A stretch of 32,884 nt of DNA from the IMG/VR virus record IMGVR_UViG_3300022844_000012, positions 1 through 32,884 of that record. One strand, 5' to 3'. Of this stretch, positions 3,224 to 32,884 are shown one piece after another (position 1 is the first letter of the stretch; each line of letters begins with the position of its first letter). The notes beneath the pieces are model-generated. The model searched no databases, was not told where the DNA came from, and worked only from the letters and a program-made list of their open reading frames with translations. Origin of the DNA: a virus (lineage: Duplodnaviria > Caudoviricetes). Made by a program: the position numbers and the translations under genes.

Positions 3224-3619
3224 CTAAAATGGAATATCATCTGAAAAATCTTCAGGGGGCGCGTCTTTACCTTGAGGCTTTTGATTACCTGGCTCACGTT
3301 TAGACCCAACAAAGTGGAATTCACTCGCCACAATGTCCGTTGTATAACGTTTAACGCCGTCTTTTTCCCATTCTTTGTATTCTAATGAGCCTTCGATAAC
3401 CAACTGATCGCCCTTTTTAACGTGTTGAGCAATAATCTCACCCATCTTTCCAAAGGCTTTGACTGTATGCCATTCAGTCTTCTCCTTTTTCTCGTTGGTA
3501 TCCTTAACCGTCCAGCGTTTAGTGGTCGCCATTGAGAAATTAGCTACCGAATTACCGTTTGGCATTTGTCTAACTTCAGGATCGTTGCCCAATCTGCCCA
3601 ATAAATTTACTTTATTCAT
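3224..3619 (-). CDS. ssb: single-stranded DNA-binding protein
   Basis: MNKVNLLGRLGNDPEVR, TEWH, KKGDQLVIEGSL OB-fold motifs and acidic DDIPF tail. Confidence 0.97.
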   Translation of the reverse strand: MNKVNLLGRLGNDPEVRQMPNGNSVANFSMATTKRWTVKDTNEKKEKTEWHTVKAFGKMGEIIAQHVKKGDQLVIEGSLEYKEWEKDGVKRYTTDIVASEFHFVGSKREPGNQKPQGKDAPPEDFSDDIPF

Positions 3620-4116
3620 ATATATCTTCCTTTTTTACACCGCTTGCGGCGAGGTGAGTTTTCTAAAGCATGAAGTTTCGAATGTGCCGATCTGGTCATT
3701 AGTTGTAGATTTTCTATTCTATTGTCATCCCTAATCTTATTTATATGATGGACGGACTCGTTTGCGTATAGCCTTCTACCTATAACCCCCTCCATTGCTA
3801 TAACGTGGACTGACCTGCCTTTATTCGGCCCCATTGTGTACTCAATCCATCCGCCAGGTTTTTTACTTGTTCCCTTCCCGACTCCCATCTTAGCTACGGA
3901 TATTTTCCTTTTTTGCTCATCCGTCATCGGTGCGCGCTTAACGCCCTTGTTTGCAGACAATCGGCCTTGTGATGCCGCCAGCCTTGTCCCGTCAGCGAAC
4001 GTTCTTAAAATACCCAAGGGCTTTAACTTCCGTCTAGCGGTAGATTTAGAGACGCCCGTCTCTTTAGCGACTTGAGAAATGCTCATTCCAGACAAATACA
4101 TGTTTTTTATATCCAT
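3616..4116 (-). CDS. free-standing HNH homing endonuclease (HTH, NUMOD3-like motif, HNH)
   Basis: N-terminal HTH (SISQVAKETGVSKSTARRKL), MTDEQKRKIS motif, VHHINKIRDDNRIENLQL..H..LH nuclease motif. Confidence 0.9.
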   Translation of the reverse strand: MDIKNMYLSGMSISQVAKETGVSKSTARRKLKPLGILRTFADGTRLAASQGRLSANKGVKRAPMTDEQKRKISVAKMGVGKGTSKKPGGWIEYTMGPNKGRSVHVIAMEGVIGRRLYANESVHHINKIRDDNRIENLQLMTRSAHSKLHALENSPRRKRCKKGRYI

Positions 4117-4122
4117 GAACAG

Positions 4123-4128
4123 AGTTTA
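4123..4128 (-). promoter_or_regulatory. candidate -10 box for a leaderless HNH transcript
   Basis: TAAACT lies 6 nt before the HNH ATG. No Shine-Dalgarno and no clear -35. Confidence 0.35.
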
Positions 4129-4129
4129 A

Positions 4130-4165
4130 CTAATAGGGCCATCTAATAACAGTCACCTTGTTCAT
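4130..4165 (-). pseudogene. relic 5' end of ssb (MNKVTVI, then RWPY*)
   Basis: AAGGAAG RBS, ATGA overlap with the exonuclease stop, first codons match the SSB N-terminus MNKV. Confidence 0.75.
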
Positions 4166-5013
4166 TCTGCTTCCTTATGTGTGATTTTCATCTGCTGTGC
4201 CGCTTTCTTGCGGTATTTCTCTAGGTTCACACCCTCTAACTGAGGGACTATCGAGTAATCAACGCTGCCTTTCTTCTCGAAAAACGTGATTTGTGCGTTA
4301 TTACACGTTGAATTCTTCTCAATTCGAGTCTTTAAGAACGTTTCAATCGCTTTCTTTTCTTCTGTAAGGGTTTTAATCCGCTCAGCCAGTAGCTTGTGAT
4401 CGCCTAACTGCATGGCAATCTTTTCATCATCAATCTCAATCCAATCAGGTTCAGGTGGGTTAGCACAGAAATCATCCCATGCCTTGATTAACTTCTTCTT
4501 CTCTGACGGTTTGGGGCTGAACTTCAGGCATTTGAAAACACCAGGTTCAATGAACACAAACAAATAGCTGTAATCAGTCGGGACAACGTAATGCTGATGA
4601 ACCAGTTGCCACATATAGTGTTCGGGAATCTCACCTTTGATTACTGACTTCCACGTTGCTGAATCAACACCTTTGTACGGGCATTTAATCTCAACGTTAT
4701 AAGTCTGACGATTTTCATCACGGCCGTAAGCATCTAGCGAAGCTGAATACTCACCTTGATTCGCAACCACTGGCTCTAGCGTAGCTTTCAGATACTTCTC
4801 TGCTGCTGCTCTAGCGATAGGCTCCATGTTATGACCATGTTCTGTAGCAACGTTACCAAAGAACGTAGACTCTCCCTGCTTCTCTAGCCAGAGTTTGTAC
4901 TTTGTTCTGAATGGATCTACCCCCATGATTGAACCAGCCTCAGAAGCGTTCCTGTAGCGGCTACGGTGGGCTAACCATTCTTTAGAGCCTTGAGTCAATT
5001 CGACAAATTTCAT
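4162..5013 (-). CDS. YqaJ-like (lambda exonuclease family) recombination nuclease
   Basis: QGSKEWLAHR, ASLD, VEIKCP and YMWQLVHQ motifs. Confidence 0.93.
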   Translation of the reverse strand: MKFVELTQGSKEWLAHRSRYRNASEAGSIMGVDPFRTKYKLWLEKQGESTFFGNVATEHGHNMEPIARAAAEKYLKATLEPVVANQGEYSASLDAYGRDENRQTYNVEIKCPYKGVDSATWKSVIKGEIPEHYMWQLVHQHYVVPTDYSYLFVFIEPGVFKCLKFSPKPSEKKKLIKAWDDFCANPPEPDWIEIDDEKIAMQLGDHKLLAERIKTLTEEKKAIETFLKTRIEKNSTCNNAQITFFEKKGSVDYSIVPQLEGVNLEKYRKKAAQQMKITHKEAE

Positions 5014-6083
5014 GCGGTTTCCTTTTTAAGTTCGGTTAAATTGATTTGCGGTGCATCGTCAAGCCCGACCAGCCTAGTTACCGCCTCTGCTGTCGTTATT
5101 GTCTTATTCGCTTCCCATGTTGGGTCAACATTGAACTCATCAAATATCAACTCATTACCAATCATCGGGGTTTTGACATTAATGCCGTACCCATTCCACT
5201 TGAATTGCCGCAAGCCTCTAATATGCTCCCGTACATGACTTGACCCGCCTCCGGTTTTTCGGTCGTGCGCTCTAACGTGATGGATAATTTTCTTACTCAC
5301 GCCATCCTCAACAACATTTTCCCTATCCTTAAAGTAATGCTTAGTGTCTTTTTTAGGGACACAAAAGGTCATGCGCTTACCATCTTTTTTACAGATAACG
5401 TGCCACATCTCGTTCTTTGCTTGCCAGAAATTAAATACTGAGTGGGCATAATATTTAACACCCTCAATATTGTTGTCTGACCCAAATGTACTAAGCCTCC
5501 AACTTCTTGAAACGTAACCCCCTCCGTTTGGAAGGCTAACTTGATGACCGTATAGGCGTTTAAGTGGAACAGCTTGATTGTCGATAATTTGCACATCGTA
5601 AGTCCCCCAATACAACTTCCCCTCGGTATGCCCGCACTGGAATCCGATGCCGATTTCATAAACAGGATGCTCTTTATTGTGTGCTTCCAAGAACCACTGG
5701 TTTCTTGTTGGCAACTTTATCGCATACACAAATGCAATATTGTCGTCCTCGCTCATCTGAAAAGAAGGATCGTTGGCAAAAAACATCATTGTGGGTCTTT
5801 TTCCGTGTTCAATCTTATCGCTTTCTACTTGGTAATCTGGCTGCGGAACAAATGGCCCCATCTTTCTCAGCGCCCTTAAATTGTTCCAATCTGCACTTCC
5901 CGACCATCCCTTAACTTCCCTCTTGATATACAACCGCTCAAAATGAGCGTCCAAGTTATCAAGGGTTTTCTTGATAGTTTTGCCCCTGTAAACTCTTTTC
6001 TTTCTGGCTTTCTTTGGCTGTTCAGGAGCCTTGGTTTTAAAAAAACTCCTGATGAATGCGACTATTTTTTTAATAATCTTCAC
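5010..6083 (-). CDS. uncharacterised 357-aa protein with HxVRxHxR motifs
   Basis: Long coupled ORF. C-terminal HHVRAHDRK...HVREHIRG. Confidence 0.8.
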   Translation of the reverse strand: MKIIKKIVAFIRSFFKTKAPEQPKKARKKRVYRGKTIKKTLDNLDAHFERLYIKREVKGWSGSADWNNLRALRKMGPFVPQPDYQVESDKIEHGKRPTMMFFANDPSFQMSEDDNIAFVYAIKLPTRNQWFLEAHNKEHPVYEIGIGFQCGHTEGKLYWGTYDVQIIDNQAVPLKRLYGHQVSLPNGGGYVSRSWRLSTFGSDNNIEGVKYYAHSVFNFWQAKNEMWHVICKKDGKRMTFCVPKKDTKHYFKDRENVVEDGVSKKIIHHVRAHDRKTGGGSSHVREHIRGLRQFKWNGYGINVKTPMIGNELIFDEFNVDPTWEANKTITTAEAVTRLVGLDDAPQINLTELKKETA

Positions 6084-6652
6084 TTCGCTTCTCCCTTCAT
6101 TTCTTTAACTTTCTTCTCTAGTCGGATGATGGACGCTTCAACGCTACCATCTGCCATGATGTAGCTTTCAACATCGGAAAAACTGGTGCCTGTTCGTTCG
6201 CACAAGTCGGCTACCTGGCCTTTCTTGCCGTTAAAAGGGTCATAAGGGCCGGTAGTTTCTAAATTGGGCAGATCCTCACCAGCGTAGATGTAAAGACCGA
6301 GACCATGAAAGGCTATAGCTTTGACCAGTGTTCGCTGTAATGCGGTGTTCACATCAAAGGAATTGGGATTCTGGATAGATTTGTTCTGGTGGTTTAGCAC
6401 TGGCATGATTTCAGTAGCGGCAACACCTTCAACCGTTACCGTGACCACTACATAAGCGTAACCATCGTTATCCTTCATGTAAGGGACCTGACCAGTGGCA
6501 ATGTCGTCAAATATTTCCTTTTTGAAGGTAGCGTCAGGGTAATGCTCTTTGAGCGTAGACCATGCCCATGCCCATGATAGGTAGCTAAACTTACCTTTCT
6601 TTTCTATGTGCTTACTAACATCAATAGCACTTAACGTTTTCCATACACTCAT
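6080..6652 (-). CDS. Sak/Rad52-like single-strand annealing protein (DUF1071-like)
   Basis: IEKKGKFSYLSWAWAW and FDVNTALQRTLVKAIAFHGLGLYIYAGEDLP motifs. Confidence 0.93.
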   Translation of the reverse strand: MSVWKTLSAIDVSKHIEKKGKFSYLSWAWAWSTLKEHYPDATFKKEIFDDIATGQVPYMKDNDGYAYVVVTVTVEGVAATEIMPVLNHQNKSIQNPNSFDVNTALQRTLVKAIAFHGLGLYIYAGEDLPNLETTGPYDPFNGKKGQVADLCERTGTSFSDVESYIMADGSVEASIIRLEKKVKEMKGEAK

Positions 6653-6831
6653 TTTATTGCTCCATGTTTAGTGATTAATTCTTGTGCCTTTTGCGACATT
6701 TCTGCCATGCCCTCAATCTTGCCCTGCGTTCTAGCCCGTAATATCAACTGCTCGAACCATTCAGATGAAACGGCATCTAACTTATGGTCGGTGATGAACT
6801 GGCGCTCAAGATCGTTCATTAGATCGCTCAT
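6649..6831 (-). CDS. hypothetical protein
   Basis: 60-aa ORF, ATGA coupling on both sides. Confidence 0.65.
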   Translation of the reverse strand: MSDLMNDLERQFITDHKLDAVSSEWFEQLILRARTQGKIEGMAEMSQKAQELITKHGAIK

Positions 6832-7361
6832 TCCTGCCCCTTTGCTTTGTTGATGATGATTCTTGTGAAGCGAAGCAATGTAATGTCTAGCATTGCCCGC
6901 TGTAGGTCGTTCAAATTAGCCTCACGGCCGTATCGGTTGATTATGTTGAGAGGTTTGTTGTCAATCAGGTCACATTCCGCAATACCTGGCAGAAGGTCAG
7001 TATCCCAAAAGGTTTCGTTATCAATCTGGTGATCAAACCGCCACTGAAAGCCATAAAACTTAATTTCCCATTCACGGTAGTAGAAGGCTACTTCGCTGTC
7101 GTCGTGACAGCACTCATCATCTGGCCCCATACCGCTTATAAGCTTCCAAGCTAGGTCAGACGCGCCCAATATGCCTTGATCACTTAGGGCGACAACGGTT
7201 TCTTCATGCAGTTGATAGGCATCCCATATATGTTCTTCAGTAAGCTGGTCTTCAGCATCCGTCATAAACATATGGGTATTGTCTTCTTGTGGGTCGTGGC
7301 CGTATTGATCCATACCATTCAGAATTGCACGATCCTCAATATCAGTTTTAGATATATACAC
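6828..7361 (-). CDS. acidic hypothetical protein
   Basis: 177-aa Asp/Glu-rich ORF, GTG start with GGAGG RBS. Confidence 0.75.
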   Translation of the reverse strand: MYISKTDIEDRAILNGMDQYGHDPQEDNTHMFMTDAEDQLTEEHIWDAYQLHEETVVALSDQGILGASDLAWKLISGMGPDDECCHDDSEVAFYYREWEIKFYGFQWRFDHQIDNETFWDTDLLPGIAECDLIDNKPLNIINRYGREANLNDLQRAMLDITLLRFTRIIINKAKGQE

Positions 7362-7526
7362 CTAAGCCTCCATCATTTTTTCAAGACGCAAGGCTAGGTC
7401 AGCCATTTCTTGAATGATCTGATGCTGTTCTTCACTAGGATGGAATGACCCGCGTAGTTCATTGCGAAGCACGAAAAGTGCATGGTCGATTTGGTAGGTG
7501 TTGAGTATAAATATTGTTAAAGACAT
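7362..7526 (-). CDS. small hypothetical protein
   Basis: Start moved to the ATG at 7526 (MSLTIFILN), which follows the AAAGGAA RBS inside the duplicated leader. Confidence 0.6.
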   Translation of the reverse strand: MSLTIFILNTYQIDHALFVLRNELRGSFHPSEEQHQIIQEMADLALRLEKMMEA

Positions 7527-7527
7527 A

Positions 7528-7567
7528 TTCAGTTCCTTTATAAGATTCAATTAAGACTAGGTGATAG
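7528..7567. repeat. 40-bp direct repeat, copy 1 (leader plus RBS)
   Basis: TTCAGTTCCTTTATAAGATTCAATTAAgaCTAGGTGATAG, 38/40 identical to 8232-8271. Confidence 0.95.
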
Positions 7568-7576
7568 GTCGTTTTC

Positions 7577-7855
7577 TCATAGTTGACCGCCATAGCCAGA
7601 TCCATCGTCAGATCCATCGTTATATCCATATCCAGATCCATATCCATATCCATATCCAGATCCATCCCCAGATCCATATCCATATCCATATCCAGATCCA
7701 TATCCATATCCAGATCCATCCCCAGATCCATATCCGTCCCCAGATCCATATCCATATCCATATCCAGATCCATATCCGTCCCCAGATCCATATCCAGCTC
7801 CATATCCAGCTCCATCCGTGGGGTCAGAATCCTCTGATAATTTAATTGACTTCAT
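7577..7855 (-). CDS. Gly/Tyr/Ser/Asp low-complexity repeat protein
   Basis: GYGYGSGDG repeats encoded by a hexamer tandem array (GGATAT/GGATCT). Overlaps the end of the upstream gene. Confidence 0.7.
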   Translation of the reverse strand: MKSIKLSEDSDPTDGAGYGAGYGSGDGYGSGYGYGYGSGDGYGSGDGSGYGYGSGYGYGYGSGDGSGYGYGYGSGYGYNDGSDDGSGYGGQL

Positions 7856-8228
7856 GGACCGCCTGCCCCTTTATTGAATTCATTGCAACTATCGAGCAAA
7901 AGATTATTTCACAAGCCTCTGGAAGAATGATCTTCTCGACTCTTGCCGTTATTTTTGAAGTTGATTCAAGCCCGTTCACTGCAACGCCAGAAAGCGAGTG
8001 TGATTTGTTAGCCGCTTTCCAGTACCAGAGCCGCCGTGACTCAGTTAACACAACCTCGCGCCCCTCGTAAGACTTCAAATATCCGGCGTGTACGCCAGCA
8101 TCTCGACAGCGAACAATGACGTAATCGCCTATCATTTCCTTGTCGCCTGAAGTTTGGCCCTGGGTTTCACTGCAATTACTATCGTCGAGTAACGCCGACA
8201 ATAGACGCTCAATTAATTTTTTGTTCAT
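7842..8228 (-). CDS. DUF6948-like protein
   Basis: YVIVRCRDAGVHAG...EVVLTESRRLWYW...SLSGVA motif. From recall, this family is usually followed by a Gly-Tyr repeat gene. Confidence 0.75.
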   Translation of the reverse strand: MNKKLIERLLSALLDDSNCSETQGQTSGDKEMIGDYVIVRCRDAGVHAGYLKSYEGREVVLTESRRLWYWKAANKSHSLSGVAVNGLESTSKITARVEKIILPEACEIIFCSIVAMNSIKGQAVHEVN

Positions 8229-8231
8229 CGT

Positions 8232-8271
8232 TTCAGTTCCTTTATAAGATTCAATTAACGCTAGGTGATAG
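8232..8271. repeat. 40-bp direct repeat, copy 2
   Basis: TTCAGTTCCTTTATAAGATTCAATTAAcgCTAGGTGATAG. Confidence 0.95.
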
Positions 8272-8296
8272 TATGTTGTAACATTAAATGTCGCAA
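8268..8296 (-). promoter_or_regulatory. sigma70-type leftward promoter
   Basis: TTGCGA-N17-TACTAT at the head of the leftward operon. Confidence 0.6.
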
Positions 8297-8316
8297 AGAC
8301 CGATTAGGAATAAGAA

Positions 8317-8517
8317 ATGAGTTTAATAGAATGGATGCAAGCCTATGGATATGGGGCTAGGGCGTACCTTGCCAAATCTCTAGACATTCAGCCAGTGACG
8401 ATAGATAGGTGGATGAAACGCCATGACCTAGAAATCTTTGTTGATATAGGATCTGAGCTAGACCAGGTTGAATTAGTCAGGGTCACTAAGATCAAACACC
8501 TAAAAGCTGTGCAGTAG
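8317..8517 (+). CDS. Cro-like HTH regulator
   Basis: 66 aa, ARAYLAKSLDIQPVTIDRW HTH, first gene of the divergent rightward operon. Confidence 0.7.
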   Translation: MSLIEWMQAYGYGARAYLAKSLDIQPVTIDRWMKRHDLEIFVDIGSELDQVELVRVTKIKHLKAVQ

Positions 8518-8601
8518 CATATTTAGCAACGGAATAAGTTGTGCAGCTCTTTTCGTCATTGAAAAACGTATAATCAATAACCCGTTATTAAACGAATGCA
8601 A

Positions 8602-8637
8602 TGTGACTAACTCTATGTTTTACCCCAGTTAGTCACA
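8602..8637. repeat. perfect 11-bp inverted repeat
   Basis: TGTGACTAACT-N14-AGTTAGTCACA. Confidence 0.85.
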
Positions 8638-8651
8638 CTCAAATTTCAGGC

Positions 8652-8766
8652 AATAAAAGGCCCACTGTAGACATTGCATCTAAGTAGGCCTAGTATCTAT
8701 TGCATGGCTGGAATTTGTCGTTCCAGTTGAAAGTTAGTTCCGGTAACAGATCAACCTTGCCTTTGA
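8652..8766 (-). ncRNA. candidate small antisense RNA (~115 nt)
   Basis: Minus-strand TTGAAG-N16-TACAAT promoter (8799-8772), CTGGAA/TTCCAG hairpin, terminal AGGCCTAC/GTGGGCCT stem followed by TTTTATT. Confidence 0.45.
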
Positions 8767-8871
8767 GCATGATTGTACCTTAAACCGTTTAACCTTCAAC
8801 CTTTTTCAGCTTGCAAAGTGGCGAATAATTGCGCGTCCAATGCAAAAAGTGATTTTATTTGTAGTACGGAT

Positions 8872-9065
8872 TAACACGCTAGGCATTTGAGACCGATGCC
8901 GATATTACAGAAAACGGGTTACGTGAAAGCAAACTATTCCCCTAAGAGTGGGGAGGGCCGGTGCGACCTACCGAATACAGGGTTCCGAATAATGTAGTGT
9001 GTTAGGCGAAAGAAGGCAGAGACCAACCTGTTAATATATTAGGGCTTTTACATAAGGTCTATATG
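8872..9065 (+). ncRNA. candidate multibranch structured RNA or leader
   Basis: Closing stem TAACACGCTA (8872-8881) / TAGTGTGTTA (8995-9004) encloses GGCAT/ATGCC, TCCCC/GGGGA and CGGT/ACCG hairpins. No ORF. Confidence 0.45.
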
Positions 9066-9102
9066 ACAACTATTGTCTGAATAACAGCAGCAAGAGGTTC
9101 AA

Positions 9103-9183
9103 ATGAAGCAGAAATTTATAGACCTAACGTTATCAACAGTCTTTTTATTATTCCTTATCGGTATTTATGGACTAGCATCATAA
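9103..9183 (+). CDS. 26-aa single-TM peptide
   Basis: GAGGT RBS, MKQKFIDLTLSTVFLLFLIGIYGLAS*. Confidence 0.5.
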   Translation: MKQKFIDLTLSTVFLLFLIGIYGLAS

Positions 9184-9218
9184 AATGATACAGTTCCTGT
9201 GACTTAAAGGAGTAAGAA

Positions 9219-9656
9219 ATGAGTGATACAGAAACTATGATAAAGGTAATGTCTGCTTATGTAGATGGGGACATGATCGAATGGAAGCCCCGTGGTAAGA
9301 ATCGCCCTTGGCAGGATATTATTGGTGGTTCACCTCGTTGGAATTGGGGCAAGAACGATTACAGGATCAAGCCAGAAGAGGCTGAGCATGTAAATATTGG
9401 CACAGACAAAAGGCTTTGGGCGCTGGAGCAACAAGTTAATAATTTGCAGTTGGCGCTACGAGAAGTCAGATTAAATCAAAATTCCAAATGGACAGGGACA
9501 ATGCTAAAGAAGCCCGAAGAAGTAATGATTGAGACTTGGGTTTATAAGCAAACTGGCGGCGTTCGCTTTTGCATTAGCGGAAGTAGGGCATCAAAAGAAT
9601 TAGAAGCAGACGCTAAAGATTTTTACTTATTGACGATTAAGTCCTCTAATGTTTGA
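9219..9656 (+). CDS. conserved phage hypothetical protein
   Basis: AAGGAG RBS. IKVMSAYVDG..IE...P.WNW...DYRIKP motif. Confidence 0.8.
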   Translation: MSDTETMIKVMSAYVDGDMIEWKPRGKNRPWQDIIGGSPRWNWGKNDYRIKPEEAEHVNIGTDKRLWALEQQVNNLQLALREVRLNQNSKWTGTMLKKPEEVMIETWVYKQTGGVRFCISGSRASKELEADAKDFYLLTIKSSNV

Positions 9657-10272: not shown

Positions 10273-10463
10273 GTCGAGGCAGATATACTGACACCAGGGC
10301 TTATTCATTCTTACCAGCTAGAGTTTTGATTATTGCTAAAGACGCAGCTAGAGCGGGGATTATTGCTAAGAAATTGGGACTACTGCAACGGCAATATATA
10401 TGGGAGACTGCTGATAGACCATTTTCGAGCGGCATGAAGATACATGATCGAGAATACTTATGA
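10269..10463 (+). CDS. hypothetical protein
   Basis: 64 aa, ATGA coupling. Confidence 0.55.
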   Translation: MSRGRYTDTRAYSFLPARVLIIAKDAARAGIIAKKLGLLQRQYIWETADRPFSSGMKIHDREYL

Positions 10464-10504
10464 ATTCCCTAACGGGATGCTCCAGCAGGTTAGTCCCCTG
10501 CATT

Positions 10505-10783: not shown

Positions 10784-10925
10784 CCCACCACCTAATAACC
10801 TGGTTGAAACAGTCGATGGATATGTCCCTAAGTGTAAAGATTGGGTCAATCTATCAGATGGTGGGGCTTTGACTGACGAGCAGATAACTAGAAGAATCGA
10901 ATATTCAGAAAGGAATAAGAAGTGA
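10767..10925 (+). CDS. hypothetical protein
   Basis: GTG start after GGAGG, GTGA overlap with the next gene. Confidence 0.55.
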   Translation: MDVIHSPPPNNLVETVDGYVPKCKDWVNLSDGGALTDEQITRRIEYSERNKK

Positions 10926-11797
10926 CTAATCCATATTTTATAGACGAGCCAGCAGCAATCAGTTTCTCCGGCGGTAGGACATCGGCTTATATGCTTTACA
11001 AAATACTCGAAGCGCATGGCGGAAAGCTGCCTGACCACATCAAATGTTTGTTCAGTAACACTGGTAAGGAGCTTCCAGAAACCTTGGATTTCGTGCAGGC
11101 GTGTTCTGACAATTGGGGTGTTGAAATTGTTTGGCTTGAATTGGAAAGCATCCGGCGATTGACGGGCGGCAAGGTTAATAATGATATGGCGATCAGGGCT
11201 GACGAGTACGAAAGAAAATACAAGTTGGTTGATTACAACACAGCAAGCCGTGATGGACTGCCTTTCACCAGATTACTCATGGGCCTGCCTCAAATTCCTA
11301 ATGCTGTACAGAGAACTTGTACTGTAAATCTAAAGATCAGAGCGATGAAATGGTATCTGGAGTCCATCGGGTATGAGTCGCCGTGGGTTCAGTTTATTGG
11401 CATTCGTGCTGATGAGGAACGCAGGGCCAGAAAACTCCACGGCAAGATTAGCGAAGGACACGAGGCGGTTTGCCCGCTATGGGTCGATGGGATCACAAAG
11501 GAAGATGTTGGTGATTTCTGGCGGAAGCAAAATTTCGATTTGAAACTTCCAAACAACAATGGAACTACGGATTGGGGCAACTGTGATTTATGCCATCTTA
11601 AATCTAGGTCGAAAAGGCTCTCAATAATTCGAGAAAGACCAGACCTTGCAGACTGGTGGATACAAGCCGAGGGATTTAAAGGCCAGAGATTCCGCCCCGA
11701 CGAGCCAAGTTACGAACAGATGAAATTAATAGCGATAGATCAGGGTAACTTGTTCGAGTTTGACGATGAATCTATCCCATGTTTTTGTGGGGACTAG
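10922..11797 (+). CDS. PAPS-reductase-family (PP-loop) protein with Cys cluster
   Basis: SFSGGRTS, F.NTGKE.PETLDFV, RTCT..LKI, IGIRADE, GNCDLC and terminal CFCGD. Confidence 0.88.
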   Translation: MTNPYFIDEPAAISFSGGRTSAYMLYKILEAHGGKLPDHIKCLFSNTGKELPETLDFVQACSDNWGVEIVWLELESIRRLTGGKVNNDMAIRADEYERKYKLVDYNTASRDGLPFTRLLMGLPQIPNAVQRTCTVNLKIRAMKWYLESIGYESPWVQFIGIRADEERRARKLHGKISEGHEAVCPLWVDGITKEDVGDFWRKQNFDLKLPNNNGTTDWGNCDLCHLKSRSKRLSIIRERPDLADWWIQAEGFKGQRFRPDEPSYEQMKLIAIDQGNLFEFDDESIPCFCGD

Positions 11798-13481: not shown

Positions 13482-13513
13482 TTTATATTCCTTTAAACAG
13501 TGAATGTGTATCT

Positions 13514-13541
13514 ATATTAGCACCCTTATCCCATAAGGCAA
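13514..13541 (-). promoter_or_regulatory. sigma70-type promoter of the leftward cassette
   Basis: TTGCCT-N16-TAATAT with extended -10 TG. Confidence 0.65.
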
Positions 13542-13785
13542 GCTAAGAAGCCCATATATGGCGCTCTCCTTAGACCGTGTGATTATGTTAAAGTCCTGTT
13601 ATCAGTGGTTTAGGTTATATGGGTGTAATAACTGCTGAATTTGCCTCTATTACTCGACGATTTGGAATATATCACCATGTATATCTCAGTGGATAACCTT
13701 GTATAACTCGATGGAATATGAATGAGCTTCTTCATAACCAGGTGGAATAAGCTATACCGTTATGATCTAAACAGTAGGTTAGTAA

Positions 13786-13837
13786 GGGCTAGGGGGGTGG
13801 GTGAAGGAGGAAGGGGGGGTGGTGTTGTGGGGTAGGG
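13786..13837 (+). other. G-rich tract (six runs of 3 or more G)
   Basis: GGGCTAGGGGGGTGGGTGAAGGAGGAAGGGGGGGTGGTGTTGTGGGGTAGGG. Confidence 0.8.
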
Positions 13838-13940
13838 AAGCAATTCCTCGTAAATCGTTTTTGAAACCAATTCACCGTAACCCATTCTCAAACCAAAAAA
13901 ACAGATCCTGAGATCACTTCGTTTGAATACATTTCTTGTG

Positions 13941-14127
13941 GCCGTAGTAACCCTTTTACTTCGAACAGTAAAATTAGGTTTCTATGGCGGTTACCTGGAT
14001 AGGTTGCTGACTTATCCGAATAGCTAGTCTCTGATATGCCCTGTTTCCTCAGTCATATCCGCTCTGTCAAGTAGGGTCAACTTCGTCTCTGTGTTTAGTT
14101 TATTCACAGCCTTGAGCGAGTCAGCAA
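13941..14127 (-). ncRNA. candidate structured RNA (~190 nt)
   Basis: Perfect 9-bp closing stem (14004-14012 / 14119-14127), internal CTGTG/CACAG and GATATG/CATATC stems, long hairpin 13941-13988, minus-strand TAGAAT at 14137-14132. Confidence 0.5.
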
Positions 14128-14178
14128 GGTTATTCTACCTAATGACCTTCCTGATCAACAATTCGTTACAAGAATACT

Positions 14179-14206
14179 TTGCATAACTTTTGGTTATAGA
14201 TATGAT
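14179..14206 (+). promoter_or_regulatory. candidate promoter of the packaging operon
   Basis: TTGCAT-N16-TATGAT. Confidence 0.5.
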
Positions 14207-14235
14207 GTAAGTGTCCACTAACCACGGGGGATGAT

Positions 14236-14388
14236 ATGAAGGTTATGTATGCAGGTAAATTACACAAAGCAGAAGTGATTTTTAAGGATTCAAAGCCTTA
14301 CTTGATCTTGGGTGAAATAAACGTGATCATTCCTCTTTTGGAGTGTGCTGTTGAGACTAGATTATCCTGTCAACTGGAAGCCGCGTGA
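14236..14388 (+). CDS. 50-aa hypothetical protein (not in ORF track)
   Basis: GGGGG RBS, MKVMYAGKLHKAEVIFKDSKPYLILGE..., overlaps the terL start. Confidence 0.5.
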   Translation: MKVMYAGKLHKAEVIFKDSKPYLILGEINVIIPLLECAVETRLSCQLEAA

Positions 14389-21776: not shown

Positions 21777-21788
21777 TATCAGTTAGGA

Positions 21789-25012: not shown

Positions 25013-25451
25013 GTACCAATTTGTAGCCACGACCGAAGAATATGCTGAACTTGCAGGCATACCTTTTGACCCTAAAGGTTGTTGTGGAGTTACGGCGATA
25101 AAGGACGGTAAAGTGTCCGGTGTTTGTGTTTTAGACAATTGGACTGAGAATGCGTGTGAAATACACATGAAAGTACCGGATAAGTGGGCTTTCAAGCATG
25201 GTTATTTAGAGGAAATTTTTAACTTTATATTTTGCGAGGCTGACCGAGGACTTGTTATTGCAACTCCAAAGTCAGACAACAACCAACTCAAACGATTCGT
25301 TACTGATCTTGGATTTAAACGTGTTGGTGTTATTCCGAATGGTTATAAAGTAGGCGTTGATGTTGAAATCAACATTTTACTAAAAGAAAACTGTAGGTAT
25401 ATCACTAATGGGATTTCTCGGAACAGGCGACAGCGCACCGCCACCACCTGA
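24993..25451 (+). CDS. GNAT-fold morphogenesis protein (T7 gp13 / P22 gp14-like position)
   Basis: N....RF...LGFKRVG GNAT motif, between nozzle and ejection genes. Confidence 0.7.
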   Translation: MAGSLDKYQFVATTEEYAELAGIPFDPKGCCGVTAIKDGKVSGVCVLDNWTENACEIHMKVPDKWAFKHGYLEEIFNFIFCEADRGLVIATPKSDNNQLKRFVTDLGFKRVGVIPNGYKVGVDVEINILLKENCRYITNGISRNRRQRTATT

Positions 25452-28275
25452 TTATGCGGCTCAAGCAAGAGCGCAGGGTGAAGCGAATAAAGATGCAGCC
25501 TATCAGACGACTGTATTAAGCAACCCTAACATCTATACGCCAACAGGCTCCCAAACAACCACTTGGGGGCCGGCTAATCAGGGGCAACCAGGTTCAACTT
25601 CGACTCCTTGGCAAAACCAGCCTTTAGCGGGCGGTCTTTACTCGCCTACTGGTGGTGGCCCTGGTGATTGGCAGCAGAACGATGCAACTGCCTCCACTCA
25701 AGGCTCAGGGCCTCAAGGTGGCGCTCAGACTACTCAGAATTCTGGATTTAATAATACGGGCAATGCTAATCAAAACCCACAGTCAGGACTAGACCCCTTA
25801 CAGGGAGCGCAATGGAATCCTGCTACTGGGACATTGCAAAATCCAGACGGAACTACATTTGACCCAACTCAGGCATATAATTCTGCTGCTGGCGGGAACG
25901 GAATACCTCCTGCACTTGCAGGAATACCCCAAGCAACGGTTAATCAGCATCTATCGCCTACTGAACAGGCCAAGATGGATAAGAATGACCTTCTGCAACT
26001 CTCATTACTGGATACCGCCCAAGGTGGTCTAGGTCGTGTGAATAACATGATGGATACGCCATTTGATATGAGCAATATCACAGAAATTTCCGATATTGAT
26101 ACTGGAAACGGCTTTAATGCTCAGAGATATTTGGCTGAAAACCCCGATGTTGCTGCTGCTGGCGTTGATCCTTACCAACATTACCAACAATACGGCAAAA
26201 CTGAGGGTCGGGGCGGTGCTGGAATCCCTACTCTGAACTCCAACGGCTTGCAGGAAATGTCAGGTGTTGATATTGGTCAGTTATCCCCGCAGGGCAATAT
26301 TGATACTTCTGGATTGACCGAGCTACAGGGTATTGATACTTCTGGATACGGGCAATACGGGAACATTGATACGAGTCAATTAGCCGATCAGGGCAATATT
26401 GATACTTCTGGATTGACCGAGCTACAGGGTATTGATACTTCTGGATACGGGCAATACGGGAACATTGATACGAGTCAATTAGCCGATCAGGGCAATATTG
26501 ATACTTCTGGAATGAATCAAGGTGGCTCGCTGAATACTGATGGGACTAGAAATTATGAGTCTCTAAACCGAAATGGACAGCCTAATATAAACGGATTGTC
26601 TCAGGAGGGTAGCGTTCAAGGTCTTGATAGAAATGGGATGCAGAATGTCCGTGGATTGGATCAAAACGGGCTTCCTCAGCAGTCTGGAATCAACCGCAAT
26701 GAACTCAGTGCTAACGGTGAGTTGAATTCAAACGCTCGGTCTTATATGGATCAGCGAGAAACAACCGGAACAGTCGGTGGTAATGATCGTGTTTATGACT
26801 CTCTAGTTCAGCGTAGACAAGGCCAGTTCGATCAACAGCGTGAGCAGGCCGAATCAGACCTTATTTCAAGAGGATTTGTGCCAGGTAGCGAAGGTTATCG
26901 TGAGCGAATGCGCGAGATCGACCAAGAAATGAACGATTATAAGTTGGCTGCAATGGCTCAAGCGGGTCAGGAACAGCAAAGATTGTTCAATATGGAAAGT
27001 GGAATGCGTGATCAAGATTTTGGTCAAGCGCAGGCATCGGCTCAGTTTGCTCAACAATTGAGAGCGCAGGGCATGGATGAACAGCAGGTTCAGGCTCAAG
27101 TTAATGATATGAACCGTAGTCAGCAGTTTTCTGAACGTCAGGATATGTCGAACTTTGATATGAGGCGTCAGGATCAGCAGTTTGGTCAGAAACAGGCTGT
27201 ATCGCAATTCTCTCAGAACCAGAATCAGCAGGATTTCAATCAGCGTCAGAATGTCTCGAACTTTGATTTGCAGAGTAACCAGCAGGATTTCGCTCAGAGA
27301 CAGGCAGTTTCTAATGATGCTCAATCTCAAAGGGCGCAGCAAATGGCCGAAAGAGGGCAAATTGCCAACTTTAATGAAGGCCAGCGTGTTCGTGAATTTG
27401 GTGAGCAAGAGTCTTTGGCCCAGTTTCAACAGCAATTACGCGCTCAAGGTCTTAATGAGCAACAGATTCAGGCTGAAATGCAGAATAAACAGCGTTCTAT
27501 GCAGTTATCTGAAGATCAGTCTATGGCTGACAACGCGGTCAGAAACCGTACCCAACAGTTCAACGAGCAAGAGCGTATGGCTCAGTTTGCTCAAGGTCTA
27601 CGAGCGCAGGGGCTTAGTGAGCAACAGATTCAAGCTCAAGTTAATAACGCAATGCGTAGCCAGCAGTTTGGCGAACGTGCTGCAACTGCTGGATTCGATC
27701 AATCTGAAGCTCAGAGACAGTTTTCTAACAGTGCTGCTCAGAATCAAGCGACTGCTCAACAGCGTCAGCAAGAGATTCAGGAGCAGGCTTACCTTAGAAG
27801 TCTGCCATTGAACGAGATAAACGCCCTTAGAAGTGGCTCACAGGCTTCATTACCTCAGTTTCAACAGTATACAGGCGCTAACGTAGCTCCTCCTCCACTG
27901 TTTGATGCTGCTGTAGCCCAAGGTAACTTTGACCAAGCCTCTTACGCTAACTCCCCTGACGTATTGGGTGGGTTGTTTAGTCTTGGCGGCGCTGCTCTAG
28001 GCGGGATGACAGGCGGCGCTACAACCGCCCTACAAGCTGGTGCTGCTGGCGCATTCGGGACACCTAGTGACATTCGACTGAAAGATAACTTAGTCGAAAT
28101 TGGTGAACTTGGCCCTCTGAAGGTCTTTGAGTGGGATTGGAATGGAAAACTTGGGCTTAAAGGCAAGAGCAAAGGCTTTATTGCGCAGCAAGTTCAGAAG
28201 CTATTTCCTCAGTTCGTTATTGAGAAATCTGGTTATCTCCATATTAAATATGATGAGTTATTGGAGGCGATCTAA
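25408..28275 (+). CDS. internal virion / DNA ejection protein with repeat arrays and a C-terminal S74 intramolecular chaperone domain
   Basis: APPPPDY start, L..RG..PGSEGY core, LRSLPLNEINAL, Gly/Ala hydrophobic segment, SDIRLKDN cleavage motif. Confidence 0.8.
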   Translation: MGFLGTGDSAPPPPDYAAQARAQGEANKDAAYQTTVLSNPNIYTPTGSQTTTWGPANQGQPGSTSTPWQNQPLAGGLYSPTGGGPGDWQQNDATASTQGSGPQGGAQTTQNSGFNNTGNANQNPQSGLDPLQGAQWNPATGTLQNPDGTTFDPTQAYNSAAGGNGIPPALAGIPQATVNQHLSPTEQAKMDKNDLLQLSLLDTAQGGLGRVNNMMDTPFDMSNITEISDIDTGNGFNAQRYLAENPDVAAAGVDPYQHYQQYGKTEGRGGAGIPTLNSNGLQEMSGVDIGQLSPQGNIDTSGLTELQGIDTSGYGQYGNIDTSQLADQGNIDTSGLTELQGIDTSGYGQYGNIDTSQLADQGNIDTSGMNQGGSLNTDGTRNYESLNRNGQPNINGLSQEGSVQGLDRNGMQNVRGLDQNGLPQQSGINRNELSANGELNSNARSYMDQRETTGTVGGNDRVYDSLVQRRQGQFDQQREQAESDLISRGFVPGSEGYRERMREIDQEMNDYKLAAMAQAGQEQQRLFNMESGMRDQDFGQAQASAQFAQQLRAQGMDEQQVQAQVNDMNRSQQFSERQDMSNFDMRRQDQQFGQKQAVSQFSQNQNQQDFNQRQNVSNFDLQSNQQDFAQRQAVSNDAQSQRAQQMAERGQIANFNEGQRVREFGEQESLAQFQQQLRAQGLNEQQIQAEMQNKQRSMQLSEDQSMADNAVRNRTQQFNEQERMAQFAQGLRAQGLSEQQIQAQVNNAMRSQQFGERAATAGFDQSEAQRQFSNSAAQNQATAQQRQQEIQEQAYLRSLPLNEINALRSGSQASLPQFQQYTGANVAPPPLFDAAVAQGNFDQASYANSPDVLGGLFSLGGAALGGMTGGATTALQAGAAGAFGTPSDIRLKDNLVEIGELGPLKVFEWDWNGKLGLKGKSKGFIAQQVQKLFPQFVIEKSGYLHIKYDELLEAI
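26290..26511 (+). repeat. perfect 99-bp tandem duplication (about 2.2 copies)
   Basis: Units start at 26290, 26389 and 26488. In frame, 33 aa each. Confidence 0.95.
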
Positions 28276-29462
28276 TGCCAACAGGATACACACCACAGTC
28301 TTCACTTGATCGACGCAAGGCCTTGATGAATCAACTCCGTCAAACGCCCATGAACGATACGGGCAAGAAGACGGATTGGGGCAGGGGTCTAGCTCACATG
28401 TTGAGACAGTACCAAGCAGGTCAAATGGGTCGTGAGCAGGAAGAGCAGATTGCCCGTAATACTGAAATCCAAGGCACTGAAATGGCTGACTTGGTTTCTG
28501 GTATATCGAATCCGGGCGCTAGTAAAGCTCAGGACTTTGGCTCAATGGGAGTATTTCAAGGCGGTGCACCTCAACCCAAGGCAGATCCAAGTCAAAGTGG
28601 CGGTCAGGGCATAGACCCTTATTCAAGTGCTGTATCTGGAATTGGCCAAGATTTGGGATCAAGAATGTCCGGTGGCGAAGCGGTAGACCCCGCTATGCTT
28701 GCTGGTGCTCAAGAAAACGCTGTATCAACTCCTGCCTTGGGTGACAGGAAGTACTCTTCTCCTATGGCTCAGAAACTCAAGATGCAGCAAGTTCTCAATA
28801 ATGCCTCTAGTGATAGAGCGCGTGGGTTCTCTGAATCTGATGCCGCAAGAGATCATAAAAACGCATTAGAATTGCAAGGCGTTAAGAATAAAGGGAGCGG
28901 TTTTAGGTCAACCCCACGGCCAATAGCTACAGATAAAGGTTATATGCAGTACGTTGATGGTCAATGGATTCCAATGGTTGATGAGGATGGAGATCCTAGA
29001 CTTGCGGCTCAGTATTCTGCGGCACTTCAAGGGGAAATATCTGAAACAAAGGCCCAAGGCGCAGCTACAGGCAAGCGGAATTATGGGATGCAGGGCATTA
29101 GTGAAATCATAGCTAATGGCAGAGCGATCCTAACGGGCGATCAGGCTCCTACGGCAAGTGGCGTTGGCGCTATGGCTGACTCTGTGGGCGGATTCTTTGG
29201 CTACTCTCCTGACGGTGCTGATAAGGCTGCTGAGATGAAAGCGGTTGGCGGTGCGTTGACAGCTAAAATGCCAAGAATGGAAGGCCCGCAATCCGATGCT
29301 GACAGAAAGATGTATGTCGAAATGGCCGGTCAGATAGGCGATGCCAGTGTTCCACTATCACAAAGAGAGGCTGCACTAGATGTTGTGGAAGCTCTTTGGT
29401 CGCAATATGAGCAGAGTAAAGTCTCGGTTGAGAGGACGGCTGAACTAGAGGCTAAGTATTAA
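28275..29462 (+). CDS. putative DNA ejection protein
   Basis: Gly/Ala/Gln-rich, MPRMEGPQSDAD motif, coupled within the ejection cluster. Confidence 0.7.
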   Translation: MPTGYTPQSSLDRRKALMNQLRQTPMNDTGKKTDWGRGLAHMLRQYQAGQMGREQEEQIARNTEIQGTEMADLVSGISNPGASKAQDFGSMGVFQGGAPQPKADPSQSGGQGIDPYSSAVSGIGQDLGSRMSGGEAVDPAMLAGAQENAVSTPALGDRKYSSPMAQKLKMQQVLNNASSDRARGFSESDAARDHKNALELQGVKNKGSGFRSTPRPIATDKGYMQYVDGQWIPMVDEDGDPRLAAQYSAALQGEISETKAQGAATGKRNYGMQGISEIIANGRAILTGDQAPTASGVGAMADSVGGFFGYSPDGADKAAEMKAVGGALTAKMPRMEGPQSDADRKMYVEMAGQIGDASVPLSQREAALDVVEALWSQYEQSKVSVERTAELEAKY

Positions 29463-31642
29463 TGAGCAGCTATGAAAAATACATGGAAATGGCTAATAAA
29501 GCTGATGAGGCTGGCGAGGAAGAAGATGCCAGGGACTTGGTTGCACTTGCTAGGCAGGCAAAATCTTCTCAGAGCCTAGATCAAGATAAGTCCGTTTCCG
29601 AGTATAAAGAACCTAACCTAGTAGACGCTATTGCTGGAAACCCTGTTTATAGGGCAGTTCAAGGCGTTGCTGACTTACCATTAGGTGCTACACAGTTTAT
29701 TGCCAATAAGACAGGCGTTGGCGAAGACACCATGAATTCGTTTATGAAAAGACGCGATGAAATAATGAATGAAGGGCGCAAGCAGTACGGCGATGAAGGC
29801 ATGGATCTGTGGCGCATGGGCGGCAATGTTGCGGGAGGCGGCGTTGCAGGTAAGGGAATTCAGTTAGGCACTGGTTTTGCACAGCAACTTGGGCGCGGTA
29901 TTGTCACTGGCGCAGGGTTTGGCGCTATTACTCCTGTTGGCGAAGGTGACTATTGGGACAAGAGTATAGAAAATACGAAAACTGGCGCTTTTTTAGGCGG
30001 GTTGATACCTGGCGCTACAAATGCCGTAAAGGGCACTTATGGATCTGTGGTAAAACCTCTAGCAGATAAGTTTGGGCCTATATTTGAAAGTACAAACAAG
30101 AGTATTTCCAAAATACTGCGAGGATCTGTTCCAGAATCACGGCGCGGGGAATTGAGCGCGGCGTTAAGGGACAACAAAAGCCCTGTTTCTCAAGGTACTG
30201 CTGGAGAAGTGGCTTCTGATGTTAGGCTTCCAGAGTTTTCGGCTATTGCTAGGACTGCCGAGGAACGAAGACCTAACCAGACTTTCGCTGTAAGAGAGGC
30301 TCAAGCTGAATCTAGGCAGGCTATTTTGGATAGGATTGCTGGTAATGCTGACGATCTGAGCAATGCCAAGACAAAACGAAAGGTCGTGTCGGACATTCTT
30401 CGAGAGAATGCCTATGAAAATGCCGCCTCTAACACTGATGAATATTTAGGCGCAGCAGGTCGAGTTGGCAGGCTTTCAGGCGGCGCTAGTCCTGATGGCG
30501 GGGTTCGCTCTGTTGCTGATGCTGTAAGGCTTCGCTCTGGAATTGAGGATGAGGTTTCTAAGGCTATAGCGGGTAGTAAGAATCAAAGCACTGTATGGGG
30601 CGCTAAGATACCGGCCAAATACACGCCGCACCGAAACATGATTGAAACGGCTGATGAATTCGTTAATGACGCAAAGTTCATAGAAAAAGCTAAGAAGTTT
30701 GATCTGGAGCAGGCCAAAGCATTGGTAAGCTCGATGGATGCTTATGGCATCAAGCCTCTAACAGTAGGCTCTGTGAATAAGAGGCTCCAATTAGTTGTCG
30801 ATAACCCTGAAACTGCCGGTGCTGCGAAAACGATCATTAAGAAGATAATGAAAGGGATTGAGTCTGAAGCTGAGGATGGCCTTATAGATCCTGTTCGCTT
30901 ATACCGAATGAGGAAGTTAGACCTTGAGCAAACTGCCGAACGGTTATTTGGCAAAGATGGCGCTAGTCAATATCAAGCTGCCCTTGTCAGGGATGCCCAA
31001 AAAGCCATTGATGATGCTATGGAATCTGCATCAGGCGGCGGCTGGAAGGCTTATTTGAAGGCTTATTCTGAATTATCTCGACCAATTGAGAAGTTACAGG
31101 TTGGGCAACAAATACGAAGCACGTTGTATCCTGAAGGCTCAGATATGATTCAAGGTGCTGCCGAACGATCAACTGCATTATCTAAGTCTCTCAGGGATCA
31201 AAGTACGGTCAAAAGAGCTACGGGCGACAGTACCAGGCAGGTTTCAGAAATTATTCCTGAGAATGATATGCTCGATTTGAAGGACTTGCGTTCTGATTTG
31301 TTGAGGTCTAAAAATTACGATACATTGTCGAAGCGGGGCGGCAGGCCAAATATTGATATGGAAAGCGCCCAATTGCCGAATGCTTTATGGCGCGAAGTAA
31401 TGATTACTAACAATGTTCTTCGCGGATTAGGTGAGACAAAACAAGCAAAGGTTATGGATAAAATTGGTGAGCTAATGTTTGCCGATTCGGGCAACGGGTT
31501 TGGTGAATTGGCTGACTTGATCGACTCACTACCTCCTGAAAACAGGAGCAAGGTTCTAAAGCTCATTGCTGAAAAAGCCCCCAATATAAGCGCGGTAATT
31601 GGCGCAACGACAACAGGAGAAGCAAATGCCACGCAACTGTAG
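29462..31642 (+). CDS. putative large DNA ejection protein
   Basis: 726 aa, Gly-rich membrane-active N-terminal segments, helical remainder. Confidence 0.7.
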   Translation: MSSYEKYMEMANKADEAGEEEDARDLVALARQAKSSQSLDQDKSVSEYKEPNLVDAIAGNPVYRAVQGVADLPLGATQFIANKTGVGEDTMNSFMKRRDEIMNEGRKQYGDEGMDLWRMGGNVAGGGVAGKGIQLGTGFAQQLGRGIVTGAGFGAITPVGEGDYWDKSIENTKTGAFLGGLIPGATNAVKGTYGSVVKPLADKFGPIFESTNKSISKILRGSVPESRRGELSAALRDNKSPVSQGTAGEVASDVRLPEFSAIARTAEERRPNQTFAVREAQAESRQAILDRIAGNADDLSNAKTKRKVVSDILRENAYENAASNTDEYLGAAGRVGRLSGGASPDGGVRSVADAVRLRSGIEDEVSKAIAGSKNQSTVWGAKIPAKYTPHRNMIETADEFVNDAKFIEKAKKFDLEQAKALVSSMDAYGIKPLTVGSVNKRLQLVVDNPETAGAAKTIIKKIMKGIESEAEDGLIDPVRLYRMRKLDLEQTAERLFGKDGASQYQAALVRDAQKAIDDAMESASGGGWKAYLKAYSELSRPIEKLQVGQQIRSTLYPEGSDMIQGAAERSTALSKSLRDQSTVKRATGDSTRQVSEIIPENDMLDLKDLRSDLLRSKNYDTLSKRGGRPNIDMESAQLPNALWREVMITNNVLRGLGETKQAKVMDKIGELMFADSGNGFGELADLIDSLPPENRSKVLKLIAEKAPNISAVIGATTTGEANATQL

Positions 31643-31649
31643 TGGGACG
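31626..31649 (+). pseudogene. relic 5' end of the tail fibre gene (MPRNCSGT)
   Basis: AGGAG RBS then ATGCCACGCAACTGTAGTGGGACG, matching MPRNGSGS at 32181. Abuts the HNH stop codon. Confidence 0.8.
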
Positions 31650-32126
31650 CTAATCAGGAATTCCGCCCCTGCCATATTTCCAGCCTATTTCCAGTCCTTT
31701 AAGATTGTGGTGCTTGCCTTTGTAGATAACGTCGTCATAAGAAAGTCCACGGTTAGCTCGATCAACAATGGTGTCAGTCTTCAGATCGGCAAGATCGGCA
31801 AGATCGGCGGCAATATACTCGGTTCCATCAATAGTCACCTTTCTGGTTATCGTTTGATTCCTCTGCTGCTGTTTCCTACTGGCCCATCGGCAGTTTTCAG
31901 GAGAGTATCCAGAGTTATTATTAATTCTATCAAGAGTGTATCCTGTGGGCCTGTCGCCCATATCGGAAATAAAGTTTTTAAAACCCTGCTTGGGAATAAG
32001 CCATTGTTCGCAGATGGATATTCCTCTACCCCCGTAATCTTTAAATTGCTTAAACTTGGGGTTATGGCATCGGTCTTTCATGCTCATCCAGACATTATAA
32101 AGCGGGTGGGGATTTTTAAATGGCAT
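31650..32126 (-). CDS. free-standing HNH homing endonuclease, antisense to the late operon
   Basis: HPLYNVWMSMKDRC.NP, YGGRGI.IC..W, TLDRINNNSGYSPENCRWAS...Q.RN motifs. AAGGAG RBS. Confidence 0.92.
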   Translation of the reverse strand: MPFKNPHPLYNVWMSMKDRCHNPKFKQFKDYGGRGISICEQWLIPKQGFKNFISDMGDRPTGYTLDRINNNSGYSPENCRWASRKQQQRNQTITRKVTIDGTEYIAADLADLADLKTDTIVDRANRGLSYDDVIYKGKHHNLKGLEIGWKYGRGGIPD

Positions 32127-32153
32127 AGTAGTGACTCCTTAGAAGTTGCTAGT

Positions 32154-32181
32154 ATTATAAACGGATAAAGGGAGTAGTCAA
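32154..32181 (-). promoter_or_regulatory. near-consensus sigma70 promoter of the HNH gene
   Basis: TTGACT-N16-TATAAT, overlapping the RBS and start of the tail gene on the other strand. Confidence 0.8.
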
Positions 32182-32884
32182 TGCCGCGCAACGGTTCAGG
32201 TTCATACTCGTTACCAGCAGGCCAGCCTGTTGTAACTGGAACCACAATTAGCTCGACAACGCACAATAATACAATGTCTGACATTGCCTCTGAAATGACG
32301 AATTCAGTGGATAAGGATGGTCAGACGGTATTAACGGGGATTATTGACCATAACGGCAATAACATCATTCTCGATACGGATGGCGATACGCTTTTAGACC
32401 TTGGAACTGACGACCAGGTTGGAATAACCATTGCTGGTGCTGCTGATTTCCTCCTATTGGCTAACATCTTCAGGGCTTTGTCAGGATCTGTACTTGAGAC
32501 GAACACGATCAATGAGACTACTGCCGCTAGTGGCGTGACGATTGACGGTGTCGTGCTTAAAGACAGTGGGATTACTGCTGGCGGTGACATTCTCAGCGAC
32601 ACAGACTCAACCGACTCAATAGGCTCGAACGCTGTTAGATGGCTCAAAGGCTGGTTCGATACGCTGACGGCAGGAACGCTGACTATCCGTAGTGGTTCAA
32701 TCACTGATTCATCGGGCGCTATTACCTTCGGCAACGAGAACCTATCGACTACTGGCACACTTGACGCTGGTGATACTGACATCACAGGCACCCTTGATGT
32801 TAGTGGCGATATAACCGGCACTGGAGATATAGCGTTAACTAAAAGCACGGCGGTAACTGCGGAATTTGAGCGAACAGGCGGAAA
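32181..32884 (+). CDS. tail fibre/tailspike protein, N-terminal part (runs off the window)
   Basis: GGGAG RBS. MPRNGSGSYSLPAGQPVVTGTTISS...SDIASEMTNSVDKDGQT virion-attachment motif, then Gly/Thr/Asp-rich sequence. Confidence 0.85.
   Translation, partial: MPRNGSGSYSLPAGQPVVTGTTISSTTHNNTMSDIASEMTNSVDKDGQTVLTGIIDHNGNNIILDTDGDTLLDLGTDDQVGITIAGAADFLLLANIFRALSGSVLETNTINETTAASGVTIDGVVLKDSGITAGGDILSDTDSTDSIGSNAVRWLKGWFDTLTAGTLTIRSGSITDSSGAITFGNENLSTTGTLDAGDTDITGTLDVSGDITGTGDIALTKSTAVTAEFERTGG

Follow-up and report, generated by a model that had tools for sequence, protein, structure and literature searches.

The window analysed here is the whole of a linear virus record of 32,884 nt, and near-identical DNA is present in salt-lake metagenomes. 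Its genes include those for a portal, a major head protein, a terminase, Sak, a RecE-like exonuclease, and ssb. Elsewhere, the window contains a 92-aa ORF made up almost entirely of Gly-Tyr-Gly-Ser/Asp repeats (7577–7855, minus strand), a Gln-rich virion protein of 955 aa that contains internal repeats and, at its C-terminus, a Peptidase_S74 chaperone domain (25408–28275, plus strand), a PAPS-reductase-like gene in the replication region (10922–11797, plus strand), and long stretches without a sizeable ORF (13482–14344 and 8518–9218). Inspection of the ssb and tail-fibre loci confirmed that two window genes are interrupted within their opening codons by nuclease genes unrelated to each other, and that each nuclease gene is followed by a spare gene start. 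The features of the two loci are as follows.

4162..5013, minus strand: YqaJ/RecE-like exonuclease gene, whose stop codon overlaps the ATG of the ssb stub
4170..4176, minus strand: original ssb ribosome-binding site (RBS), read from the sequence
4130..4165, minus strand: ssb stub (old start), MNKVTVI followed by RWPY and a stop, with its ATG at 4165; 12.8 bits
3616..4116, minus strand: HNH1, 166 aa, with an N-terminal HTH and a C-terminal HNH_3 domain; ssb-targeted family
3626..3632, minus strand: replacement ssb RBS within the 3' end of HNH1, read from the sequence
3224..3619, minus strand: ssb with the replacement start MNKVNLLGR, without the motif NKV[IMT]xxG; its ATG overlaps the HNH1 stop
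29462..31642, plus strand: gene of the virion module, upstream of the tail stub and overlapping it by its last 17 nt; 726 aa, PHROG of unknown function
31615..31649, plus strand: original RBS and tail-gene stub MPRNCSGT, ATG at 31626, with the nearly invariant Gly5 changed to Cys
31650..32126, minus strand: HNH2, 158 aa, PHROG HNH (E 3.6e-49)
32154..32181, minus strand: sigma-70-like promoter of HNH2, 11/12 match with a 16-nt spacer, overlapping the new tail start
32168..32884, plus strand: replacement RBS and tail-fibre-like gene MPRNGSGS, ATG at 32181, PHROG tail fibre (E 5.9e-6); the contig ends within the gene
31626..32168, plus strand: stop-free mirror frame of 180 codons, running from the old start across HNH2 to the new RBS; proposed ribosome relay

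An earlier note on this DNA had described a stub coupled to the upstream gene, an HNH gene, and then a new RBS with a diverged copy of the first codons, and this order is present at both loci. The two nucleases differ, as it had also stated: HNH1 faces forward and combines an HTH with an HNH_3 domain, and HNH2 faces backward and belongs to an unrelated family. The loci are not products of one homing system, as had been proposed, but of two unrelated HNH families with a common strategy. A promoter of its own, which the note had assigned to each HNH gene, was recovered for HNH2 (11/12 sigma-70 match) and not for HNH1, upstream of which no promoter match was found in the window; among 11 other loci with free stubs, the promoter score was at least 10/12 in five.

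HNH1 matched Pfam HNH_3 with 48 bits (cut-off 24.8) as well as HTH_7, and the HH..N..N..H residues were invariant in its family (29–30 aligned homologs), while a search of solved structures with HNH1 returned a match to the HTH only. Behind the new start, the window encodes a full-length Pfam SSB domain (positions 1–103 of 104). Contigs of two other sequencing runs span the ssb cassette (X4, 2931–5062; X5, 2900–4506), and because they cross it, an assembly artefact at this locus was ruled out. The X5 contig has single-base deletions within HNH1 at window positions 3867 and 3903, which represent either a frameshifted allele or sequencing errors. The contigs of 4 of the 21 runs contained no empty ssb allele from the phage of the window itself, contigs being evidence of presence and not of absence.

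To place HNH1 in its family, loci were gathered by scans of viral, metagenome, and genome data, the best 80 being kept in three of the scans. Among the matches listed, ssb lay directly downstream in 68 of 253 HNH1-match loci; for homologs scoring at least 79 bits, again among the matches listed, it lay directly behind in 40 of 43 loci (38 of 41 distinct loci). The three exceptions comprised two loci with less than 80 nt of downstream sequence and one with an SSB-like gene recognized by eye. Conversely, HNH1 occurred in none of 80 independently fetched ssb loci. Several of 37 protein homologs of HNH1 had ssb-like N-termini (e.g., MASVNKVII and MAGSVNKV), and comparison with independent ssb starts confirmed this likeness.

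Stubs were scored with a 15-nt matrix derived from 74 distinct independent ssb starts, and a strict stub was required to reach at least 10 bits and to have an in-frame start codon. Strict stubs were found in 18 of the 38 distinct core HNH1 loci, compared with 1 of 22 distant ssb-adjacent HNH loci, 2 of 162 HNH loci away from ssb (p 3e-13 against the core), and none of 586 control windows. The enrichment of duplicated starts around HNH genes that the earlier note had called for is therefore present in this family. Twelve of the 18 strict stubs ended in a stop codon, and six were fused in frame to the HNH gene; the fused form also occurs in yong1 and Pmp11. In the scored window of the other 20 core loci there was no strict stub, and inspection by eye revealed shorter fused starts in 10 of them, full stubs approximately 300 nt upstream in two, and none in about six. 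The HNH1 tree was mostly unresolved, with 6 of 35 branches starred, and the loci therefore cannot be counted as fully independent.

Related genomes with and without the nuclease genes differ as the earlier note had predicted, the empty alleles reading straight from the stub into the gene body. In the cultured phages Bas81, Skate, and SeSz-2, the ssb allele is empty and MARGVNKVI runs directly into ssb; in HC6, ZCEC08, and L336, the same nine codons are followed by a promoter, an RBS, the HNH gene, a second RBS, and MSSIGINKCIILGRV, and the common ssb sequence is rejoined at about codon 14. The insertion in the HC6/Bas81 pair thus lies after codon 9, within the coding start. The empty ssb junction was spanned by 117 of 149 matching records, many of which are re-deposits. 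At the tail locus, an occupied allele with a stub (L511) and an empty one (L084) have upstream sequences that are 78% identical, and for the ssb and the tail cassettes alike, close relatives differ in whether the same allelic site is occupied. Furthermore, a 595-bp ssb cassette is 98.7–99.8% identical in five genomes whose flanks are 70–93% identical and whose upstream genes differ; by sequence comparison, the ssb cassette is shown to have spread horizontally and recently. Since relatives without the nuclease genes read straight through, spread by cutting of the intact start is likely. It has been reported that phage HNH genes mediate marker exclusion (accessible text of PMC12724721 and PMC2988022), and the cassettes might accordingly be kept for excluding competitor phages and not by selfish homing alone. 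We regard this as very unlikely: the patchy presence of the cassettes and their near-identity across diverged flanks fit selfish spread, and exclusion, although compatible with homing, leaves the stubs unexplained.

The replacement starts of ssb have been recoded. The motif NKV[IMT]xxG was present in 63 of the 74 empty ssb starts and in none of the 38 replacement starts (p 3e-20), whereas NRV occurred in none of the 74 empty starts and in 19 of the 38 replacement starts. At least five routes led to the loss of the motif (NRV, NKC, NKA, NLV, NKVN, and Gly to Cys), and the route differed within three well-supported HNH1 sister pairs; because well-supported sister HNHs differ in this way, the change arose repeatedly. 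NRV occurs naturally in some SSBs of Bacillota. In the replacement starts, it comes after prefixes that have NKV in the empty set. When the stub and the new start of the same locus were compared, the leading residues matched in 12 of 18 cases (2.0 expected on shuffling), and the new starts are therefore mostly lineage-matched, not foreign. Some stubs (L258 and L178) retain NKVILIG, and a recognition site must therefore reach past the first Gly. [quoted passage not shown]

In 8 of 80 loci, an HNH2 homolog in antisense orientation immediately preceded this tail-fibre-like gene, and further searches brought the tail-family set to 22 distinct loci, including the window. Among the hits to the tail cassette, no cultured phage was identified. 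HNH2 itself had no Pfam match, no PDB sequence match, and no hit in the solved-structure search. In the window it is truncated and lacks the C-terminal CxxGH..CxxC finger that is found in ten aligned homologs, and this copy of the nuclease may be dead. A 9-nt direct repeat (window 31674–31695) lies where HNH2 diverges from its homologs and loses the finger. The tail stub of the window scored 10.7 bits, a threshold of at least 10 bits being reached by 1 of 1,469 control windows; with the same controls, strict tail stubs were found in 3 of 14 loci, so that stubs are enriched here too, and inspection by eye identified stubs in two of the eight later tail loci. The tail family has fewer stubs than the ssb family. 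Two unrelated tail stubs (window 31626–31649 and L594) have Cys in place of the nearly invariant Gly5, and Asn4 is changed to Lys in L067. In the last of these loci, a C-terminal remnant of another, L072-like HNH gene lies between the stub and the present HNH gene (L067:1795–1855), which suggests, from the sequence, that an earlier cassette at this site gave way to the present one.

These data bear on classical intronless homing, in which the HNH enzyme would cut at a distance and the stub would be the neutral scar of a one-off insertion. Free-standing enzymes of T4 do cut hundreds to thousands of base pairs away, according to the accessible part of PMC2988022, and in the tail family no recoding was seen and the stubs are decaying, as in the Gly5-to-Cys changes of the window and of L594. 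However, the foreign sequence in the HC6/Bas81 pair stops at about codon 14, every new ssb start has lost the motif, by at least five routes, and in Pocitis76 an unrelated HNH gene before ssb has no stub and leaves NKVI intact. Cutting at a distance is therefore a distinctly unlikely account of these cassettes, and cutting at the gene start is preferred.

The tail stub MPRNCSGT, which the earlier note had recognized and which is present above chance, is not a dead end: it opens the 180-codon stop-free frame opposite HNH2, which the note had missed. The codons TTA, CTA, and TCA, which would place stops in this frame, account for 0 of the 158 codons of HNH2 in the window, compared with 2–6% in 17 other genes of the window. 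The mirror frame was stop-free in 11 of the 22 tail loci, including the window (9 of the first 14 and 2 of the 8 later loci, which served as a replication set), and these 11 loci represent about eight lineages with 32–61% identity. In all 11, the first stop of the frame fell within −21 to +8 nt of the new start, and in nine the frame began at a start codon tied to an upstream stop or an RBS; the frames of L098 and L108 had no clear start. The remaining 11 tail loci, with the stub-bearing L591 and L594 among them, lacked an open mirror frame.

An open mirror frame could be a functionless shadow ORF, a by-product of codon bias. GC-rich genes open mirror frames easily (6 of 22 controls above GC 0.58), half of the tail loci have no open frame, and at GC 0.50–0.56 the excess was not significant (4 of 9 open, compared with 4 of 12 for all controls). 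Against GC-matched controls, however, 10 of the 20 scored loci were open when approximately 0.8 were expected (the sum of the P0 values), L067 and L600 having been dropped from the scoring by a motif filter. Four open frames lay at GC 0.38–0.45, where 5–10 stops were expected (P0 3e-5 to 7e-3), and the other two frames of the open loci contained 6–15 stops. The scarcity of TTA, CTA, and TCA relative to other genes of the window and the termination of the frame at the new start also speak against a shadow ORF. Moreover, with orientation assigned only roughly, by the longest ORF in the flanks, HNH2-like genes elsewhere had an open frame in 0 of 33 co-oriented cases and in 6 of 10 cases antisense to both flanks (p 3e-5), one of the six (L626) being another tail locus. 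Taken with these comparisons, a shadow ORF seems unlikely, and a frame kept open by selection is favoured.

Open antisense frames occur not only at tail-gene loci but also behind a major capsid gene (L170) and a terminase gene (L115). The stop-free opposite frame of L170 bridges the major head gene to the next gene; that of L115, which was scored as not open, begins 3 nt after the terminase stop. In L170, L115, and L166, the antisense HNH genes lie at other junctions, the opposite frame is stop-free between the stop codon of the upstream gene and the start that follows, and no stub was seen. A portal identity for the gene downstream of L115 was considered and is unsupported, there being no PHROG match.

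The frame might alternatively encode a working protein, such as a nuclease inhibitor, for which the presence of an RBS and a start codon and the length of 180–240 codons could be cited. However, its peptide had no Pfam match under E 0.2, peptides were 57% identical where the HNH proteins were 85% identical, and HNH synonymous sites at the mirror frame varied as freely as those in the tail gene (68 of 155 versus 23 of 55), which makes a functional product highly improbable. Given this free synonymous variation and the lack of a Pfam match for the peptide, it is the openness of the frame, not its product, that appears to be selected. Strict terminators consisting of a hairpin and a T-run were found in 3 of 11 tail loci without and 0 of 11 with the putative relay frame, numbers too small to lean on.

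Taken together, it is likely that the HNH cassettes home into gene starts and rebuild each start from a spare copy, and that ribosomes reach the new start by relay from the old one. In this model, an empty allele would be cleaved at its intact start by the HNH enzyme, with the occupied allele as the template for repair. The predicted recognition site in ssb would start at the NKV codons, run beyond the first Gly, and be split by the insertion. The stub would then be the left half of the site and serve as the left homology arm, with the gene body as the other arm, and the new start would recode the left half. With only the left half remaining in the stub, and with this half altered in the new start, neither copy would be cut and no splicing would be needed; site splitting and recoding would together make the occupied allele immune. 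A forward HNH gene, often fused to the stub, would pass ribosomes from the old to the new start through its own frame, and a backward one would do so through the stop-free mirror frame. Such passage would preserve coupling and protect the late operon from polar termination. The changes in the tail stubs perhaps reflect selection against a relay peptide with an intact tail-anchoring motif.

Sequence comparison supports the comparative predictions of the earlier interpretation, and start-replacing cassettes are well supported at this level. We lean, with less assurance, toward the broader reading that splicing-free, start-replacing homing elements are widespread in phages and that the antisense strand of the backward copies is selected only for the absence of stops, as a ribosome relay. 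If so, selection on the relay ORF would act on its translation and not on its product; as a natural long antisense ORF maintained to let ribosomes pass, it would have a bearing on the interpretation of antisense ORFs and on polarity in phage late operons. The cassettes would also illustrate how a selfish nuclease, with neither intron nor intein, gains entry to a phage gene at its most conserved codons, and they would account for odd ssb N-termini and for HNH proteins that start with ssb residues. The ssb family can be tested directly, because a narrow site is predicted and both occupied (HC6 and ZCEC08) and empty (Bas81) alleles occur in phages of E. coli.

With its nuclease and DNA-binding domains, its allelic presence and absence, and its recent spread, HNH1 has the sequence hallmarks expected of a free-standing HNH homing endonuclease. 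On the layout of the occupied loci, which have a second RBS and start after the HNH gene and spacers of less than 100 nt, a homing endonuclease gene (HEG) borne by a group I intron or an intein was rejected. The literature searched, mostly the main text of freely accessible papers, contained no account of phages in which a 5' start is replaced or a relay frame is used, and the accessible text of phage HEG surveys (PMC10448857, PMC12724721, and PMC3706429) does not describe duplicated starts. Among known systems, as far as the available text of PMC2988022 describes them, the free-standing seg and mob enzymes of T4 and its relatives are inserted between genes and cut far away; the phage cassettes resemble them in their free-standing HNH genes, the co-conversion of flanks, and overlapping start and stop codons, and differ in inserting within the coding start, with a predicted site split by the insertion. 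The same text describes Aeh1 mobE in nrdA and T4 mobA in gene 60/39, where the HNH gene likewise lies within coding sequence without splicing; there, however, the host protein is split into two reassembling chains, whereas the cassettes leave a stub and provide a full-length protein from the spare start, as seen in the SSB domain.

In fungal mitochondria, free-standing HEGs adjoin duplicated pieces of atp9, atp6, and cox1, including duplications of the atp9 N-terminus; these are organellar GIY-YIG or LAGLIDADG genes, and no recoded start or relay frame is described for them in the accessible part of PMC7487136. The HNH insertions at lysin A of Cluster J mycobacteriophages, described as single rearrangements, similarly give a neighbouring gene a new end (the 3' end in Omega), although a duplicated start is not reported in the available text (PMC3706429). 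The comparison extends to the WHO elements of Torulaspora and Lachancea yeasts, which replace the 3' end of FBA1 via a duplicated fragment (Coughlan et al., bioRxiv 10.1101/2020.01.20.913210, accessible text). As in the model for the phage cassettes, there is no splicing, a duplicated fragment of the host gene is the second homology arm, and the rebuilt host gene has a resistant end. WHO elements, however, carry an intein-like endonuclease with a zinc finger and target FBA1, whereas the phage cassettes carry HNH enzymes, target ssb and tail genes, and replace the 5' end. By analogy, the phage cassettes would work like WHO elements, not as members of that group but as its 5' mirror image.
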